From a virus (Duplodnaviria > Heunggongvirae > Uroviricota > Caudoviricetes): a stretch of 35,686 nt of DNA. The stretch is taken from the IMG/VR virus record IMGVR_UViG_2923302340_000008. The stretch is one strand, 5' to 3'. Under the pieces are notes generated by a model. That model saw only the letters and a program-made list of their open reading frames with translations, did no database searches and was not told the origin of the DNA. The translations under genes and the position numbers were made by a program. Below are positions 1,659 to 8,157 of the stretch, one piece after another (within the stretch, counting starts at the first letter, position 1; each line of letters begins with the position of its first letter).

Positions 1659-4130
1659 TTAAGAATCAGCCTGACTCGGGATCAGTTTTTGCCAGATAAC
1701 TGAAACGTATTTTGCCTGGTAACGGGCGTCATCAAGTGCATTATGGCGCTCACCTTCGAATGGAATAGCCGTTCTGGCATCGAAGTCTATGGCTTTCCCC
1801 AGCTCAACGATTGTGCGTACATCGCGATCGTTGTAGTAACGCCACGGACAGGGGATCCCCTGCCGTTCGTATGAACGGCGCAAAATCGTGTTGTCGAAGT
1901 TGGCTCCATTTCCCCAGACCTGAACAAAAAATTCACCGGAGTTTTCGTCGATAAATTCCCGCAATTGTAACAGTGCATCATCTAACGGGATTTCATCGGT
2001 CATAATGGCAGATTGCGCTTCGCGTGATTGCTTAAGCCACCATTTAATGGTGTCCCGATCAATGACTCCGCCAGCAGTTTCCAGATCGATAGTCTTACTA
2101 AATTCCGGTCCCATATCTCCGGTTTGCGGATCGAAAAATATTGCACCTATTGAGATGATCGGGGCATCAGGATTTTTTCCCATGGTTTCAAGGTCGATCA
2201 TTAGATGGTCACACGTCCTGCTGGTGGATGTGATTTCGTGATGACCGTTCACCTTAATTGAGTGATCTGCCGTCTCGCCAGTTTCATTATCGCTATCGTG
2301 ATGCTGATTGCCGCCAGTGTTCTCCTTGTGTGGATGTTCAGCGCCTTCCATTTCCTTCGGATCATCTTCCTGAACTTCAACCTGATACTCTTCATCGAAT
2401 GTTTCCTGGTATGTTGCGTCGCCCATCACCGCGCCACAATCAGGGCAGTTGCCGCCGCCGGTCTGACCGCAGGCGGTGCAGACTTTTTCCACTTCCTGTT
2501 GCGCCACTGGTTCAGGCTGTTTCGTTTCTGGCTCGTTTTGTAACGCATTTGGGCTGTTTTGTTCCGCTTTTTGGTAGTTCCGTTCCGATTCATGCTGGTT
2601 CTGGTTCACAGAATCGCGGGTCTGGATCCCCTTAACCCATTTCGGATCATTCGGGTCACTAATCCCTTCAACAAATTCACCACGTGATGCAGCAAGCAAC
2701 TTATCGGCGTCAGGCTGGCTGATATTGGCTGCCTGCATAATTTTGTTTACTTCGTCAGCGGTAACTTTTATCGGTTCTGGTTGTTCTGAATCTTCAGCGG
2801 TATCTACATTTTGCGGTAAGCCCGTGTATGTGCCATTTTTTCGGGCAAAATATTCTTCTTTAGTGATTTCAGTGGCGCCAGCAGCCAGTGCCTTATCCAG
2901 ACCAGAAAGTTTGTTTGCGCGACCGTATTTTTCTCCGTCCTTATCTGCGAAGAGGAAATAGAACGGCCCCTCACGCTCTACAGATGGTTCAGCTTCCGGC
3001 GCGGTTTCATTTTTTGGGATATCAGATACCTCAGTTTCCACTGCATCAGTTTGTGTTTCTGATGACTGGAGAACATCAACAGTGCCCAGGTCTGTTTCTT
3101 CATTCTCAAACACGCCCTTTGTCGTCAGGTATTCAGTAATGTATTTGTTCAGTGCCACAGGGTCTTTGTGAATGTCGATCGGACGTTCACGGACAAGGCC
3201 AAAAATAGTCTGGCGGTCGTAGCGAAGGGCATCAGGCTGTTTGCGCATTGATGCCGAGATACGCTTCCAGTCTTCACGGTCGTTGTCGATAACTTCATTT
3301 TTTGCCCAGCGATGGATGCTGCCGTCAATGTTTCCGGCATCCACATCACCAGGCCAGAGAGCGTAGGCCAGTTCGTCATCCAGTGTTTTCCATGTCTGCT
3401 TGTATTCGCGATGAATGGCAGCAATGACCGGGCTGAGTTTTCCTGTTGAATTTTCAGTGTGCTGTTGATTGGCTCTGGCGCGGGCGAGATCAACAACAGA
3501 CGTGTATTTTCCGGTTTCCTTGCGTTCACCTTCGCGACGTTTTTTCCAGATGCGCATCTCTGCCTGAATTTCGGGCCATTTGGCACCTGGCTTACATTTA
3601 TGCTTAACCCACCCGATGGCATGCAGCTTAAGCTCCGGATACATGGCGTTAACTTCTGGCATTTTCATCAACGCTTCAACGATATGTCCGTCGAATGTTG
3701 CCATGTCTTCCTGCAACAGTTCCTGCGCGCTAATCACCATATCAACGGTGATGTTTTCACATGTGTCGAACTTAACCATGACAGCGTTCTGTACTTCAGG
3801 GGCCAGCTTGTCAAAAGTGACGTTTATCGGATCTGATTCAGTCTCAACCGGGACAAAGGAAGCAGACTCCTCATCCCAGCGGTTTTCCTGCATATATTCA
3901 GCATCCCAGGAATCGAGGGCAGGGCGGGGTATGTCAGGTTTATCCTCGCAGACAATAAATTTATAAGCGCAGTCCTGAGCAGCCGTATAATGTTCCAGGA
4001 ACTGCCAGTGAAATTTTGCTCGAGCACGGCGTTCGTCGCCAGCTTCAATGGCTGTGGCTACAGCCACAGCGCCTTCTTCCCTTGTTGCCAGTTCGTCAGG
4101 AATAGCGGCGCAAATAAAGACTTTACTCAT
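1659..4130 (-). CDS. Phage exonuclease with C-terminal DnaQ-like (DEDDh) 3'-5' exonuclease domain and internal Cys4 zinc ribbon
   Basis: 823-aa ORF. The C-terminus carries DLETMG…GNGANFD…HNALDDARYQAKY motifs typical of DEDDh exonucleases. A CTACGQTGGGNCPDCG zinc-ribbon lies mid-protein. A GAGG RBS lies about 10 nt upstream. It occupies the exo position of the leftward early operon. Confidence 0.75.
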   Translation of the reverse strand: MSKVFICAAIPDELATREEGAVAVATAIEAGDERRARAKFHWQFLEHYTAAQDCAYKFIVCEDKPDIPRPALDSWDAEYMQENRWDEESASFVPVETESDPINVTFDKLAPEVQNAVMVKFDTCENITVDMVISAQELLQEDMATFDGHIVEALMKMPEVNAMYPELKLHAIGWVKHKCKPGAKWPEIQAEMRIWKKRREGERKETGKYTSVVDLARARANQQHTENSTGKLSPVIAAIHREYKQTWKTLDDELAYALWPGDVDAGNIDGSIHRWAKNEVIDNDREDWKRISASMRKQPDALRYDRQTIFGLVRERPIDIHKDPVALNKYITEYLTTKGVFENEETDLGTVDVLQSSETQTDAVETEVSDIPKNETAPEAEPSVEREGPFYFLFADKDGEKYGRANKLSGLDKALAAGATEITKEEYFARKNGTYTGLPQNVDTAEDSEQPEPIKVTADEVNKIMQAANISQPDADKLLAASRGEFVEGISDPNDPKWVKGIQTRDSVNQNQHESERNYQKAEQNSPNALQNEPETKQPEPVAQQEVEKVCTACGQTGGGNCPDCGAVMGDATYQETFDEEYQVEVQEDDPKEMEGAEHPHKENTGGNQHHDSDNETGETADHSIKVNGHHEITSTSRTCDHLMIDLETMGKNPDAPIISIGAIFFDPQTGDMGPEFSKTIDLETAGGVIDRDTIKWWLKQSREAQSAIMTDEIPLDDALLQLREFIDENSGEFFVQVWGNGANFDNTILRRSYERQGIPCPWRYYNDRDVRTIVELGKAIDFDARTAIPFEGERHNALDDARYQAKYVSVIWQKLIPSQADS

Positions 4131-4223
4131 TTTGTTTTAACCTCATGACAGATTTAAGGATGAACAAATCCCTGCCATTGCTGGCATATAAGAATGAAAC
4201 CGGATATTTATTACGGAACTGTT

Positions 4224-4415
4224 TTAAAGACCTGCCGGGATTTCGATATTATCCTGGTGAATAACTTTATCGACCGGGTAACAGTTACCGGGAATTTTCT
4301 GTTCGGTTGCTGCAGTCATACACTCCTGCATTGTCCTGTGAACACTGACTGCAATATCAACTGGCTCTCCGGAAACAAGAAAAACTGTCAGAACAAGCGC
4401 AAATGCTGAATTCAT
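4224..4415 (-). CDS. ydfD: YdfD-like small lysis protein with N-terminal hydrophobic segment
   Basis: 63-aa product (MNSAFALVLTVFLVSGEPVD…) immediately downstream of dicB, with its start overlapping the dicB stop. Length and position match Qin ydfD. Confidence 0.7.
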   Translation of the reverse strand: MNSAFALVLTVFLVSGEPVDIAVSVHRTMQECMTAATEQKIPGNCYPVDKVIHQDNIEIPAGL

Positions 4416-4600
4416 TGTGCACATCCTTTTGGCATCAGACGTAAACGAGCCAGCATTGAAACAATGCATATTTTATTTAATAGCTCCCGTTCTTGTTTTC
4501 TCTTGTTAATGGCATCTTCAGTAAATACAGGGTTACTGATAGTGACACCAATTTCAAAACAACCTTCAGACGTATTAACGTTTGGTAATAACGTTTTCAT
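4412..4600 (-). CDS. dicB: Cell division inhibitor DicB
   Basis: 62-aa product MKTLLPNVNTSEGCFEIGVTISNPVFTEDAINKRKQERELLNKICIVSMLARLRLMPKGCAQ matches recalled DicB nearly residue for residue. A GAGGA RBS lies 8 nt upstream. dicF lies immediately upstream. Confidence 0.85.
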   Translation of the reverse strand: MKTLLPNVNTSEGCFEIGVTISNPVFTEDAINKRKQERELLNKICIVSMLARLRLMPKGCAQ

Positions 4601-4771
4601 TATCGCGTCCTCAACAATGAATTTTGTGATGCAGTGCCTGGTGCCTCCAGGTGACGTTAACCAGTTAACAATTAACGCCGGATACAGAGAATCCACCCAT
4701 AACACTGTTTTTGGTTTTAACTGTTCCGCGTGCGCTTAGCCGCATTCACCGCATCACAAAATTCACTTTAA

Positions 4772-4827
4772 AAACGGCGGCAGAGCAGTCACGGAGTAAA
4801 ACTGATACCGCCAAACGTCACCAGAAA
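4772..4827 (-). ncRNA. dicF: DicF small regulatory RNA (ftsZ translation inhibitor)
   Basis: The reverse complement of 4776..4827 reads TTTCTGGTGACGTTTGGCGGTATCAGTTTTACTCCGTGACTGCTCTGCCGCC, matching the recalled about 53-nt DicF sequence. A GGCGG…CCGCC stem and a U-tract follow. It sits directly upstream of dicB as in Qin. Confidence 0.85.
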
Positions 4828-5102
4828 ATTGATAACAGAGGGCGTTGCAGCGGGGTTGTCACTTAAGCGTATGGTTAACCTGACAACTCGGTGTCCTCAA
4901 CGGGGAAGGAATAACCCCGCCATACTTACCGCCGCGCCATTTCGCGGGTTGCCACAACCGGAAGCGCACGGTCGAATTAAATTTAACGACACCGTACAGT
5001 GAGACGAACTTCGCCGTGCGCTTTCGTGTTGTGTGCCTGCTTTTAACCACGTCAGGCGAGGTGGTATCCTTCTTATCCCGAATAACCAAGAAGGAAATCT
5101 AT

Positions 5103-5303
5103 ATGACTAAAGAAGAATTTGTCTCTTATATTTTTGATAAAACGGTTGAAATGTATGCCGCTACTTACGGGTCCTGTAATCCTCTGAATAAACCAGAGGG
5201 GAAAGATGATTTCGACAAAATTTACCGCTTCTTGGAGGATCGCTATATCAAAAGGTTAGAGGACGCAGGGATCAAATCCCCAGTGAAGTCACCATTGTCC
5301 TGA
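5103..5303 (+). CDS. Hypothetical 66-aa protein encoded on the strand opposite to the dicB operon
   Basis: ATG preceded by a strong RBS (AAGAAGGAAAtctatATG). Codon composition is protein-like. No recognisable family. Confidence 0.4.
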   Translation: MTKEEFVSYIFDKTVEMYAATYGSCNPLNKPEGKDDFDKIYRFLEDRYIKRLEDAGIKSPVKSPLS

Positions 5304-5649
5304 GAACTTGCAGGACGTCATGATCGTAACTTCCATCCAAACCGCGACGGCAAATTGCTTCTCGTATTACCGGAAGCAGTTCGCTGGAAATCTCGGTGCA
5401 TATTTCACCTGCTAATACGCCTGGTTCAAGTGAGAATATTGGTGAACTTACGGTCTTGGTCTCGACAGTTTCAGAGTCAGTGCCAACATTATAAAGCTCA
5501 ACGAAAGCGGTCTTGATTTTCCGGGCCAGATCTTTTGCTGGCTCGCTTGCAATATCTTTCCCGATTTCTCGCAGCACAGAATGCAATGTATGAGCTGCTG
5601 TTTTCTGTACATCAGACGGTAAATCTTTAAATTCCATCGTCAGCCTCAT
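5272..5649 (-). CDS. Hypothetical 125-aa protein of the dicB operon
   Basis: Its start overlaps the ydfA-like stop (TGATG), suggesting translational coupling. Composition is protein-like. Family unknown. Confidence 0.5.
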   Translation of the reverse strand: MRLTMEFKDLPSDVQKTAAHTLHSVLREIGKDIASEPAKDLARKIKTAFVELYNVGTDSETVETKTVSSPIFSLEPGVLAGEICTEISSELLPVIREAICRRGLDGSYDHDVLQVLRTMVTSLGI

Positions 5650-5801
5650 CAGTCAGTGTTTCTGGCTAACCAGCAACGCGCGCCAGATTCGGTTTTAAAC
5701 GTTTTGCTTTTGGTATATGTCATCGCGGTGAACGTACCGTCCTGGTTGGGGAACACGCCACATACCAGAGATTCGCTGTTGCCAAGATCGATAGTATCCA
5801 T
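5649..5801 (-). CDS. ydfA: YdfA-like small protein (first gene of dicB operon)
   Basis: 50-aa product MDTIDLGNSESLVCGVFPNQDGTFTAMTYTKSKTFKTESGARCWLARNTD resembles recalled Qin YdfA. It lies downstream of the dicA-like gene. Confidence 0.6.
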   Translation of the reverse strand: MDTIDLGNSESLVCGVFPNQDGTFTAMTYTKSKTFKTESGARCWLARNTD

Positions 5802-5914
5802 GCTGACCTCATTTCCCCTTAACGCCGGGGTAGCGGAACTGTTTGCTGAGAACACCGTGCGGTGTGTTGATGGAGGTGATTTGGTTTTCTCATTGTTTTT
5901 CGTCAAGGTTTTTT

Positions 5915-5936
5915 GATGAGAAAACTCAAGTATTGG
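5915..5936. promoter_or_regulatory. Candidate DicA operator in the dicB-operon promoter region
   Basis: gaTGAGAAAACTCAAgTATTGG is a near-exact copy of the site at 6450..6470. It contains the inverted repeat TGAG-aaaa-CTCA. It lies between the dicA stop and the ydfA start. Confidence 0.5.
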
Positions 5937-5993
5937 CGCAAGATAAAGCCAATACATTGAAATGTAAGGCTTTAAAATTTTGTGAAGGGATGA

Positions 5994-6401
5994 TTATTGA
6001 TGCTTGTTGCGTTTGCGAGCCTCTAATAGCTCGGTGAACAGGCGATTAAAATTCTCAACGCGGGCGCGGAGTTCGCTGAGTTGTGCTTGTTGCTCTGATT
6101 TAGGAAGTGCGCGATACAAACGCAGCATCTCTAACTCATCTTCCGATAAGTCTAAGGCACTATCGAGTGAAACAGGGGGAGCTGGTGTTTTGTCCTCGTC
6201 GCCAAACAGTATCCAGGTTGGTGAACATTGCAATACCTCGGCGAGGCGATGCAAATTTTGCCCGCGCGGGGCTGTATGGTCACTTTCCCATAATGAAATT
6301 GATGAGCCAGATACGCCAGCAGCTTTGCTTAAACCGTTTTGACTTAAGCCTACCTGCTTACGTCTTTCTCTAATGCGTTGACCTAAAGTTTTCTCGTTCA
6401 T
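5994..6401 (-). CDS. dicA: DicA-like HTH (XRE-family) repressor
   Basis: 135-aa product from MNEKTLGQRIRERRKQVGLSQ… with an N-terminal HTH and the motif LQCSPTWILFGDEDK recalled from DicA. It is divergent from the dicC-like gene. Confidence 0.8.
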   Translation of the reverse strand: MNEKTLGQRIRERRKQVGLSQNGLSKAAGVSGSSISLWESDHTAPRGQNLHRLAEVLQCSPTWILFGDEDKTPAPPVSLDSALDLSEDELEMLRLYRALPKSEQQAQLSELRARVENFNRLFTELLEARKRNKHQ

Positions 6402-6449
6402 ATTTAGATATCTTAATAACCCTTGACTTGAGATTCCTTGAGTGATTAG

Positions 6450-6470
6450 CATTGAGAAAACTCAATATTG
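6450..6470. promoter_or_regulatory. Candidate DicA/DicC operator in the divergent intergenic region
   Basis: atTGAGAAAACTCAAtATTGG with inverted repeat TTGAG-aaaa-CTCAA. It overlaps a putative dicC promoter (TTGACT at 6423..6428) and lies just upstream of the dicC RBS. Confidence 0.5.
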
Positions 6471-6478
6471 GAGGTGCG

Positions 6479-6706
6479 ATGTTTAAATCAGACGTAATTA
6501 ATTTTTACGGTACGAAAGCCAAAGTAGCGAAAGCTGCTGGCGTTGACCCATCTGCTGTTTCTCAATGGCAAGAGCTGGTTCCTGAAGGTCGCGCGATGCG
6601 TCTACAGGAGGCATCTGGCGGCGAGCTTCTGTATGATCCCAAGGTTTATGACGAATATCGTAAGACGAAGCGGGCGGGGCGGTTGAACAATGAAAATCAC
6701 TCCTGA
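6479..6706 (+). CDS. dicC: DicC-like Cro-type regulator
   Basis: 75-aa product with C-terminus …LVPEGRAMRLQEASGGELLYDPKVYDEYRKTKRAGRLNNENHS as recalled for DicC. GGAGG RBS. Divergent from dicA. Confidence 0.75.
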   Translation: MFKSDVINFYGTKAKVAKAAGVDPSAVSQWQELVPEGRAMRLQEASGGELLYDPKVYDEYRKTKRAGRLNNENHS

Positions 6707-7211
6707 ACAGGCTCGTGAGGCTCTGGATGCTTGGATATGTCGACCAGGAATGACACAGGAGCAGGCGACGATATTAATCACTGAAGCATTCTGGGCTTTG
6801 AAAGAGCGCCCGAACATCGATGTTCAGCGTGTCACAGATGAAGGTGGCGCGGTTGATCAGCGAGCGCTTGGCGTTAATCGAGTGAAGATATTCGAACGCT
6901 GGAAGGCTATCGACACCAGGGATAAGCGTGAAAAGTTCACGGCGCTAGTGCCTGCAATTATGGAGGCTATCCGGATTAATGATTTCAGGTTGTATCGTGA
7001 AATTAGTGACGGAAAAAGCATCACGTACATGATCGCCGGGTTAAACAAAGAATATGGCGATGTGGTGGAGTCCGGACTGCTTTTTGCTGATCCTGCCGTA
7101 GTGGATCGTGAAACTGACGAACTTATAGAAAAAGCAATTGCTTTCAAACTTGCGTATCGACAGCAATACCAACAAAAAGCTGGATGGAATTATGAGCCTT
7201 CTTTTTGCTGA
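6690..7211 (+). CDS. Phage early-region protein of unknown function
   Basis: 173-aa ORF beginning inside the dicC 3' end and co-directional with it, upstream of the replication gene. No recognisable motifs. Confidence 0.5.
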   Translation: MKITPEQAREALDAWICRPGMTQEQATILITEAFWALKERPNIDVQRVTDEGGAVDQRALGVNRVKIFERWKAIDTRDKREKFTALVPAIMEAIRINDFRLYREISDGKSITYMIAGLNKEYGDVVESGLLFADPAVVDRETDELIEKAIAFKLAYRQQYQQKAGWNYEPSFC

Positions 7212-8157
7212 ACGCCCACTGGTTATAAACACACAGCTTGCGATGAAGATTGGCTTAAATGAAGCCATTGTGTTGCAGCAGTTGCATTACTGGTTGAGAG
7301 ATACCAATTCCGGCATGGAATGTGATGGTGTTCGCTGGATTTACAACACAACGGAACAATGGCTGGAACAGTTCCCATTCTGGTCAGAGTCAACGTTAAA
7401 GCGCGCGTTTGCAAGTCTGAAAACGCTGGGGCTTTTGCGTTGTGAAAAGCTCAATAAATCAAAGCGCGATATGACCAATTTCTACACGATTAACTATGGG
7501 AGCGAGCTTTTAGATGATGGCAAATTGAGCGAATCCATCGGTTCAAAATGCGCCGCTCCATCAGGTCAAAATGACACGATGGAAGAGGTCAAAATGAAAC
7601 GCTCCATTGGTTCAAAACGACCCAATGTCATCGGGTCAAAATGGCCTGATGATCTTACAGAGAATACAACAGAGATTACTACAGAGAATAAAAACACTTT
7701 TCGTCCGGAAGCTTCGCAATCGGACCCGCAGACAGCTGAACAGAATTATTTAACCCAATATCCTGACGCGGTGGTTTTCAGTGCTAAAAAACGTCAGTGG
7801 GGGAATCAGGAGGATTTGGCGTGTGCGCAATGGATCTGGGCACGAATCGTGAGCCTTTACGAACAGGCCGCCAGTGATGATGGCGAGATCATGCGACCAA
7901 AAGAGCCTAACTGGACTGCCTGGGCTAATGACGTGCGCACAATGCGGATGCTGGATGGCAGAAGCCATAAACAAATTTGCGAAATGTTTGGTCGGGTTCA
8001 GCGAGATCCATTCTGGGTAAAAAACATCATGAGCCCTTCAAAGCTCCGCGAAAAATGGGATGAACTGGTCATTCGCCTGGGGCGTTCACCTGTACAGCGT
8101 TGTGTGAATCATATTTCTGAGCCGGACAGCGAAATTCCACCGGGATTCAGGGGGTAG
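7192..8157 (+). CDS. Replication initiation / replisome-organizer-like protein with N-terminal HTH
   Basis: 321-aa product. The N-terminal region (NTQLAMKIGLNEAIVLQQLHYWL) is HTH-like. Repeated SIGSK/VIGSK peptides are encoded by an internal iteron array, analogous to ori inside lambda O. Confidence 0.65.
   Translation: MSLLFAERPLVINTQLAMKIGLNEAIVLQQLHYWLRDTNSGMECDGVRWIYNTTEQWLEQFPFWSESTLKRAFASLKTLGLLRCEKLNKSKRDMTNFYTINYGSELLDDGKLSESIGSKCAAPSGQNDTMEEVKMKRSIGSKRPNVIGSKWPDDLTENTTEITTENKNTFRPEASQSDPQTAEQNYLTQYPDAVVFSAKKRQWGNQEDLACAQWIWARIVSLYEQAASDDGEIMRPKEPNWTAWANDVRTMRMLDGRSHKQICEMFGRVQRDPFWVKNIMSPSKLREKWDELVIRLGRSPVQRCVNHISEPDSEIPPGFRG
7537..7644. repeat. Iteron array (candidate replication origin) inside the replication initiator gene
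   Basis: Five copies of a GG(T)TCAAAA(T/C)G motif spaced about 23-24 bp apart, at 7540, 7564, 7587, 7609 and 7633. Confidence 0.6.

Follow-up and report, generated by a model that had tools for sequence, protein, structure and literature searches.

A Probable DicF Processing Stem and a Convergent Orphan Gene Side by Side in the dicB Operon of a Qin-Like Prophage

Introduction

The DNA considered here is a stretch of 35,686 nucleotides (nt) from a virus of the Caudoviricetes (IMG/VR record IMGVR_UViG_2923302340_000008), hereafter called the window, to which all positions refer unless another locus is named. It contains a dicB operon, the products of which, DicB and the small RNA (sRNA) DicF, affect cell division and phage resistance. 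A preliminary description made from the sequence drew attention to the segment between ydfA and dicF, where an open reading frame (ORF) of 66 codons lies on the strand opposite to the operon, beside an inverted repeat. The analysis reported here indicates that these are two unrelated things side by side, i.e., the known processing stem of the DicF precursor and a variable cargo slot that holds a moron-like orphan gene, the 66-residue ORF. We assign a probability of about 0.62 to this explanation as a whole.

Organization of the Locus

The window was recognized as a lambdoid, mEp460/Qin-like prophage of Escherichia coli, and the region around the locus as its immunity and early-left part. A 1.1-kb query around the locus is 99.6–99.7% identical to the chromosomes of E. 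coli BL21(DE3), REL606, strain C, and others (99.6% for the Qin prophage of BL21(DE3)), and of 5,426 complete E. coli genomes, 384 (~7%) contain at least 80% of this query. The nearest phages are mEp460 and HannyBb, the former being a viable temperate phage with the identical gene arrangement. The same genes were annotated in BL21(DE3) by the Prokaryotic Genome Annotation Pipeline (PGAP), with the 66-residue and 121-residue products as hypothetical proteins.

On the minus strand, the partner ORF of 121 or 125 codons is followed by DicF, dicB, ydfD, and a gene for an 823-residue exonuclease (Table 1). DicF was identified by a full-length Rfam match (4775–4826) of 72.5 bits, compared with a gathering score of 48 (E = 3e-15). 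The operon had been said to differ from that of E. coli K-12 between ydfA and dicF, and this is the case: ydfB and ydfC are absent, and their slot is filled by the 121-codon gene on the operon strand and the convergent 66-codon gene on the plus strand. Aligned with the Qin prophage of K-12, the DNA is unalignable from the ydfA stop codon to ~5040 and then ~99% identical through DicF, the divergence ending ~210 nt upstream of dicF.

Table 1. Coordinates of the features at the locus, with the basis of each assignment
Feature	Position	Strand	Basis
DicA-like repressor gene	5994..6452	minus	
ydfA (DUF1391), first gene of the dicB operon	5649..5804	minus	Pfam PF07151, E 4.6e-27; PGAP
121-residue early-operon gene, WP_001320327.1, PHROG 33007	5272..5637	minus	upstream ATG at 5649 would give 125 residues
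66-residue gene, WP_000159335.1, PHROG 34441	5103..5303	plus	ORF list; PGAP; PHROG, E 1.5e-50
Convergent 3′ overlap of the 66- and 121-residue genes, 32 nt, dual coding	5272..5303	both	ORF coordinates
Shine–Dalgarno region of the 66-residue gene, AAGAAGGAAA	5088..5097	plus	read from the sequence
Hairpin 1, 8-bp inverted repeat, UCCUUCUU / AAGAAGGA	5067..5095	undecided	repeat search
Invariant block with candidate extended −10 promoter, GGTGGTATCCTT	5060..5071	plus	comparison across three genomic contexts
Hairpin 2, ACCAC...GUGGU, in the leader of the operon RNA	5046..5065	minus	predicted fold; kept in leaders of types A, B, and C
Imperfect stem of ~23 bp; 5′ arm CACAACACGAAAGCGCACGGCGAA, 3′ arm UUCGACCGUGCGCUUCCGGUUGUG	4953..5033	minus	repeats, minimum-free-energy fold, covariation
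76-codon open frame over the non-coding DicF leader, judged spurious	4859..5089	minus	frame comparison
Predicted 190-nt DicF precursor, from RNase III 5′ end to terminator 3′ end	4775..4964	minus	coordinates computed from K-12
DicF sRNA, 53 nt	4775..4827	minus	Rfam RF00039; K-12 dicF annotation

The Inverted Repeat and DicF Processing

A perfect 9-bp inverted repeat had been described upstream of the 66-codon ORF, at about 4972..5031. The repeat itself is real and comprises 10 perfect base pairs (bp), or 13 nt at 92%; its position was off by about 9 nt, the arms lying at 4962–4971 and 5014–5023, and flanks at 4953–4963 and 5023–5033 add further pairing. Because the window holds 23 perfect 9-mer inverted-repeat seeds, compared with ~9 in shuffled sequences, a repeat of 9–10 bp alone is not beyond chance, and its meaning must come from comparative data and from the folding of the leader. 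In the minus-strand RNA, both the minimum-free-energy and the centroid folds form a stem of ~23 bp with one A·C mismatch and two single-A bulges, i.e., about two helical turns of double-stranded RNA, which is the size of an RNase III substrate. The fold of the 341-nt leader has a z-score of −2.7.

The stem was compared using 119 DicF-bearing viral contigs together with loci already fetched (labelled L plus a number where they have to be told apart), which yielded 169 leader copies, 104 distinct leaders, and an alignment of 24 distinct stem variants. A covariation analysis across related prophages had been proposed as a check, and its outcome is positive: 89% of the alignment cells are paired, both partners have changed in 7 of 12 pairs, the real alignment surpasses all of 500 shuffles in each of the five measures used, and slid registers pair in 20–51%. 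The 3′ arm, CCGUGCGCUUCC, is identical to that of K-12, with the leader downstream of it ~99% identical, and from ~4985 to DicF the nucleotide conservation is at least 98% among the 104 distinct leaders. Loci without DicF (L008, L009, and L010/L062) have a stem of other sequence in the equivalent position, flanked by the invariant CAYAAC and GUUGUG, so that by this comparison the stem is conserved in these early-left transcripts independently of DicF.

In E. coli K-12, the ~340 nt between ydfC and dicF are annotated as intergenic, and the region upstream of dicF has been described in the literature as a long untranslated region. Ragunathan et al. (2023, PMC10448788), confirming Faubladier (1990), reported that the 5′ end of a 190-nt DicF species is generated by RNase III and that of the 53-nt DicF by RNase E. 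In the same study (PMC10448788), both species were found to stem from a transcript starting at dicBp, the ydfA transcript was lost in an rnc mutant, and Fig. S1 displays the loop and the 3′ arm of the same stem as that described here. Counting 190 nt back from the 3′ end of DicF leads to K-12 locus position 2746, which is window position 4964, inside the 3′ arm (4960–4971) and within the sequence CCGUGCG/CUUCC; the 190-nt size is a gel estimate, and the computed 5′ end is good only to a few nt. Judging from the identity with K-12 and the covariation, the GC-rich inverted repeat is the already described RNase III processing stem of the DicF precursor and not a new RNA element. By homology with K-12, RNase III would cut the 4953–5033 stem of the dicB-operon mRNA, producing the 5′ end of the 190-nt DicF at ~4964, and RNase E would then trim this species to the 53-nt DicF. 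The hairpin as such has thus been described before, and what is shown here is its covariation and its presence in relatives without DicF.

A scan of positions 3500–7500 against Rfam at E ≤ 1 returned only DicF and a sub-threshold match to STnc100, with nothing over the hairpin region. The STnc100 match is full-length and covers the DicF–dicB spacer (4568–4777, minus strand; 34.5 bits, gathering score 47), and the equivalent place in L008, where DicF is absent, is matched as well (40.7 bits). Where the window has hairpin 2, leaders of the K-12 type (L003, ~2660–2700; type D, e.g., L110) carry CCCUGAAAAGUCAGGG followed by GCAUAAC, a sequence that by eye alone is similar to boxB of lambda (GCCCUGAAAAAGGGC) together with the 3′ flank of that element; among the products of the operon, none was seen to be N-like. 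In L008, L009, L010, and L062, the RNase III-type stem directly adjoins sequence like the spacer that follows DicF (GUUGUGGUAAUGCGGCU...), 60–260 nt upstream of the 66-codon gene, which suggests that DicF and its ~190-nt leader form an insertable module bounded by GUUGUGG-like repeats.

A published sRNA from an mEp460-like prophage, sRNA-17 of E. coli K1 RS218 (193 nt; PMC7719688), was also compared, and its sequence is not in the window. The reverse strand of sRNA-17 contains a DicF-like core and terminator (...CUUUGGCGGUACCAG...CUGGUACCGCUCUUUU) and begins at CGUUGUGG, the position just past the RNase III stem, while the Northern probe listed for it (PMC7719688) has the same sense as the claimed sRNA. 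Thus, what was reported as sRNA-17 may be the ~190-nt precursor to a paralogue of DicF, with the strand assigned wrongly.

The conserved leader also contains the 76-codon minus-strand frame, for which a ydfC-like nature had been considered. This frame is open in the present window and matches PHROG 8854 at E = 2e-27. However, insertions and deletions of ±1 nt switch the frame repeatedly among the 104 distinct leaders, with an open length of 21–76 codons back from the common stop, and a BLASTP comparison of the 76-codon ORF with K-12 YdfC gave no alignment at E ≤ 100. Since the frame is not kept in spite of the conserved nucleotide sequence, and similarity to YdfC was not found, the match to PHROG 8854 is attributed to ORFs called over the non-coding leader, and the 76-codon ORF is, on this comparative evidence, spurious and not a gene. 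The family PHROG 8854 (unknown function) itself would seem to consist of ORFs that were predicted in phage genomes across the conserved DicF leader, and its removal from consideration makes for a cleaner annotation.

The 66-Residue Protein

The plus-strand ORF, for which a near-consensus ribosome-binding site had been noted, is borne out by comparison with its relatives. The protein begins MTKEEFVSYIFDKTVE. Cedecea and two prophage contigs assembled from metagenomes have homologues (73%, 57%, and 54% identity) with the same start and length, and the N-terminal sequence MTxEEFVxYIFDKTVE is invariant among them; the family also has a member in Morganella. All homologues keep AAGGA or GGAGG at a distance of 6–11 nt upstream of the start codon. 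In the 56 codons outside the overlaps with other genes, the ratio of nonsynonymous to synonymous substitution rates (dN/dS) is 0.04–0.26, and differences are in excess at third codon positions (e.g., 10/10/25 compared with Cedecea). Loss of the frame through frameshifts and stops had been named beforehand as an observation that would speak against the gene; the frame and length are kept down to 54% identity, and insertions or frameshifts disrupt a few copies (L056, L067, L068/L069, L226/L229), most being intact. By the comparative evidence, the ORF is thus truly protein-coding and subject to purifying selection.

A word-indexed search found 19 clusters of this family, and an exhaustive profile search of 1.84 billion representatives gave 13 matches at E ≤ 1e-3, of which about ten are genuine. 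Where an organism is named, the sources are almost all Enterobacterales (Escherichia, Shigella, Cedecea, Morganella); a few matches come from metagenome bins with other labels. The AlphaFold2 model is a two-helix hairpin (helices 3–21 and 31–54) with a predicted local distance difference test (pLDDT) score of 79.5. There is no hydrophobic segment, no 19-residue Kyte–Doolittle window exceeding 1.6 (maximum 0.31). For the 66-, 121-, and 76-residue products, Pfam and NCBIfam gave nothing above the cut-off, and PADLOC gave 0 families. Sequence searches of the Protein Data Bank (PDB) and Foldseek searches yielded no meaningful match for the 66- and 121-residue proteins, the former having no Foldseek match below E 0.8 against PDB and BFVD; a literature search on the protein accessions found nothing, and PHROG 34441 is a family of unknown function. 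The model and the searches together show the predicted product to be small and soluble, with two helices, and to belong to a narrow family from enterobacterial prophages that has no recognizable relatives. The G+C content of the ORF is 0.39–0.40, compared with 0.47 for the window and 0.45 for the partner gene.

The Convergent Partner Gene

The ORF at 5272..5649 had been described as a 125-residue ORF translationally coupled to ydfA. Its first ATG does share one base with the ydfA stop codon (TGATG); however, all homologues begin with MEFK, which corresponds to the second ATG at 5637, 6 nt downstream of a GAGG, and PGAP likewise gives a length of 121 residues. In the protein, an N-terminal helical hairpin domain, which other PHROGs have as well, is joined by a disordered linker to a C-terminal domain of ~50 residues. 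Its AlphaFold2 model has a mean pLDDT of 59.8, with ~80 for residues 1–50 and low values elsewhere, including a low-confidence C-terminal helix pair. A dN/dS of 0.21–0.57 indicates purifying selection on this gene as well.

All 61 IMG/VR loci with the partner C-domain carry the 66-codon gene or a remnant of it (full-length in 55), and in every locus seen the 66-codon gene lies antisense inside an early operon, beside immunity genes (repressor or cro). In L004, L007, L008, L009, and L010, it is convergent with a gene for 121–137 residues that directly follows the gene of a cI-like repressor, and the overlaps range from 32 to 56 nt (56 nt in L004/L007, 32 nt in L008/L009). In Morganella (L193), the homologue overlaps a 63-residue first early gene by 35 nt; homology of this gene to the partner C-domain was considered and was not detected (hhalign probability 0.2%). 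In Cedecea, the 66-codon gene lies between cro and cII, antisense to the pR operon, and only the C-terminal ~50 residues of the partner are kept, with their own Shine–Dalgarno sequence and ATG (match to PHROG 33007 positions 71–121, E = 1e-15). The C-domain ORF of this Cedecea locus (L005, 3568–3897, minus strand) is without its usual stop and stays open antisense through the whole 66-codon gene for 109 codons, so that the two open frames overlap fully. An Rfam search found no DicF in L004, L005, L007, L008, L009, L062, and L193, and the cassette is therefore independent of DicF. A tRNA gene lies in the early-left operon a few hundred bases downstream of the cassette in L004 (4257–4329, minus strand) and L007 (3260–3332, minus strand).

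Expression Signals

The sequence GGTGnTAnCCTT (5060–5071) is the only contiguous invariant block upstream of the 66-codon ATG in three genomic contexts, being the same in the E. coli cassette, the L004 lineage, the Cedecea copy in its other operon, and type B cargo (see below). It includes a fit to TGnTAnnnT located 33–41 nt upstream of the ATG, with the TG at 5062–5063 and the hexamer at 5065–5070. The nonamer TGGTATCCT (5062–5070) is thus a candidate for a weak extended −10 promoter of the 66-codon gene, with a predicted start at ~5075–5081.

Further hairpins had been noted near the ORF, and a second perfect repeat of 8 bp (5067–5074 and 5088–5095) is indeed present, forming hairpin 1, which pairs the Shine–Dalgarno sequence with an upstream CCUUCUU. 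Its arms differ yet stay complementary in L004, L008, L009, L062, and L080. Both strands fold with similar energies; wobbles and energies favor the plus strand in L004, L009, L010, and L080 and the minus strand in L008 and in type C leaders, where the wobbles of the equivalent hairpin are legal only on the operon strand. On the operon RNA, the hairpins at 5046–5095 would plausibly leave a protected 3′ end on the upstream ydfA/121-residue mRNA after the RNase III cut, which would fit the loss of the ydfA transcript in the rnc mutant.

The Cargo Slot

The content of the slot between ydfA and the DicF leader was surveyed in 117 DicF-bearing viral contigs, which were not selected through the 66-codon gene. 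The K-12-like ydfB/ydfC side is found in 87 of these loci, type B, with an opposite-strand ORF of 106 codons encoding a hydrophobic C-terminus, in 13, a type C junction with a GGGG-loop hairpin in eight, and the 66-codon cassette in seven; in the remaining two, ydfA is joined directly to the leader without cargo. The one type C locus examined, L128, carries an opposite-strand ORF of 148 codons (PHROG 6315). Examples of cargo positions are 5103–5649 in the window, 4585–4905 (minus strand) in L080, and 4917–5363 (plus strand) in L128. Thus, three of at least five fillings of the slot (the 66-, 106-, and 148-codon ORFs) carry an ORF opposite to the dicB operon. Searches of the alternative cargo ORFs with Pfam, NCBIfam, and PADLOC gave nothing. 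The 148-residue protein has hydrophobic segments; a first impression that it is SLATT-like was not supported and was dropped. The 66-codon cassette is found in only one of 50,697 phage records.

This census marks the slot as a hot-spot for cargo ORFs on the opposite strand. The proposal that a gene opposed to an early operon has a moron-like configuration agrees with these data, the same slot holding other opposite-strand cargo and the family always being antisense in an early operon. The slot is a defined place in which to search for new prophage-encoded functions in conflict or in the maintenance of lysogeny.

Function and Alternative Explanations

For the 66-codon gene, the best-supported reading is that of a lysogen-expressed moron. 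The gene would be transcribed from its own weak promoter while the repressor silences the convergent dicB promoter; after induction, the strong early transcript would shut it off by transcriptional interference and antisense pairing. Presence or absence at the same site among close relatives, as in morons, is seen among the slot classes and between K-12 and the window, while the gene runs into its convergent neighbor instead of ending at a terminator of its own. Our best guess at the role of the protein is a benefit to the lysogen or a part in phage conflict, possibly with or against the C-domain of the convergent partner. Superinfection exclusion is a conjecture, one possibility among several: neither homology to known exclusion or defense families nor the membrane association typical of many superinfection-exclusion proteins emerged from the family, fold, and hydropathy analyses given above. 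The gene encodes an uncharacterized, selected small protein of BL21(DE3), REL606, and other E. coli B derivatives, and is carried by ~7% of complete E. coli genomes. In sum, we regard it as an ordinary, though genuine, accessory orphan adjoining a known RNA-processing element.

Several points weigh against the combined explanation of a DicF processing stem and a moron-like gene in a variable slot. The candidate promoter has no −35 element, and a sigma-70 consensus scan did not call the motif. A terminator scan of 4600–6000 found none on either strand and hence none after the 66-codon gene on the plus strand, which is atypical for a classical moron. A start at the candidate promoter would leave the hairpin between the Shine–Dalgarno sequence and its complement outside the 66-codon mRNA, so that either transcription starts further upstream or the hairpin belongs to the other strand; if the promoter is assigned correctly, hairpin 1 is more likely to act in the operon RNA. 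Expression of the gene is a prediction from sequence at both the transcript and the protein level, its G+C difference is only modest, and family and fold searches gave no functional clue (families E > 0.04, folds E > 0.8). For the stem, RNase III cleavage was mapped in K-12 and is predicted for the present prophage, the published 813/814 position could not be mapped, and some lineages have unpaired changes, G7→A in four sequences and A9→C in five.

A first alternative is that the 66-residue protein and the partner C-domain form an undescribed two-state pair. An effector of exclusion, abortive infection, or host modulation would be produced only under repression of the early promoter and would be neutralized by the early partner upon induction, with the 3′ overlap adding antisense shut-off to that at the protein level, by a logic like that of P22 sieB/esc or of a toxin and its antidote. 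The complete co-occurrence of the two genes in IMG/VR points in this direction, as do the Cedecea locus, which keeps just the partner C-domain beside the 66-codon gene in a different operon, the convergent overlap with the first early gene in the distant Morganella member, and purifying selection on both genes. However, the physical overlap partly forces the co-occurrence, and the loci counted are for the most part E. coli prophages that are almost identical; for the Morganella partner, no homology to the C-domain could be detected, and no PADLOC or toxin–antitoxin family is matched. We hold this pairing to be unlikely. If true, it would provide an exclusion or host-control function to which the prophage itself is immune and which, as Cedecea illustrates, is portable between pL and pR operons.

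It was also considered that the plus-strand unit might act mainly as an RNA, the peptide being secondary. Convergent transcription and cis-antisense pairing would then damp leaky expression of the toxic dicB and dicF in lysogens, in the manner of OOP and sar. Such a role would be consistent with the constant antisense position of the gene in an early operon beside the immunity region, with the conserved 3′ overlap with the upstream early gene, and with the shared orientation of the other cargo ORFs; with no plus-strand terminator found, the transcript would run antisense over the 121-codon gene and ydfA towards dicBp. In contrast, the low dN/dS and the third-position excess show that the protein itself is selected, and an RNA role would not keep a frame of 66 codons at 54% identity, which makes this explanation improbable.

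It is far less probable that the long inverted repeat serves the plus-strand gene, whether as a folded 5′ leader, as something like a riboswitch, or as a convergent terminator. The repeat does lie 80–150 nt upstream of the 66-codon ATG, and it is linked to the cassette in L009, L010, and L062 even without DicF. However, it is near-identical in K-12 and in the 87 of 117 DicF loci that have no 66-codon gene, and its one-sided C→U changes (K-12, L086/L128/L160, L027/L161) give U·G pairs on the operon strand and C·A mismatches on the plus strand. The repeat is followed by no U-run on either strand, no terminator was called and no Rfam match found, and it lies upstream of the only conserved promoter-like block. 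The earlier suggestions of a leader, a convergent terminator, or a new RNA gene thus give way to a long stem on the operon strand, kept in K-12 without the 66-codon ORF and coinciding with the published RNase III site.

Finally, it is scarcely credible that the 66-codon ORF is a chance frame in the 3′ untranslated region of the 121-codon gene, or that the 76-codon ORF is the real, ydfC-like gene: both ORFs are short and have no characterized homologue, a few 66-codon copies are disrupted, and the 76-codon ORF has its PHROG 8854 match, but the former shows selection, a coding pattern, and a conserved start and Shine–Dalgarno sequence, and the latter is broken by ±1 indels in many near-identical copies, is not similar to YdfC, and falls in a region annotated as untranslated in K-12.

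Comparison with Known Systems

The closest known system is the processing of the dicBF mRNA in the Qin prophage of K-12, with which the present locus shares the leader (~99% identical from the 3′ arm to DicF), the stem, DicF, its terminator, and the computed end of the 190-nt species inside the stem. It differs in the apical part of the stem-loop and in the module to which the leader is joined upstream, which is other cargo and not ydfC, and the cleavage is known from K-12 only. In K-12, the slot is taken by ydfB and ydfC, which are encoded on the operon strand; its DNA cannot be aligned with that of the slot in the present prophage.

Morons of lambdoid prophages are accessory genes with their own expression signals that are present or absent among related phages. 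The 66-codon gene resembles such morons (lambda bor and lom, HK97 gp15) in fixed-slot polymorphism, insulating orientation, a modestly lower G+C content, a candidate promoter of its own, and the existence of alternative cargo. In contrast to them, the search for a terminator of its own found none, the gene overlaps its neighbor convergently instead of being intergenic, and its expression in the lysogen is a prediction only.

The sieB genes of Rac, lambda, and P22 are exclusion genes of early-left operons that are opposite-strand or independently expressed. The present gene is likewise a small gene within a pL operon region that is plausibly expressed in the lysogen; however, no sequence or fold similarity was detected, and its product lacks a hydrophobic segment.

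The lambda OOP and P22 sar RNAs are non-coding cis-antisense RNAs of lambdoid immunity regions. As with these, the 66-codon gene would give a short transcript that is convergent with an early gene and overlaps its 3′ end, and RNase III could act on the resulting duplex. OOP and sar are non-coding, whereas the 66-codon transcript would encode a protein that the comparisons place under purifying selection.

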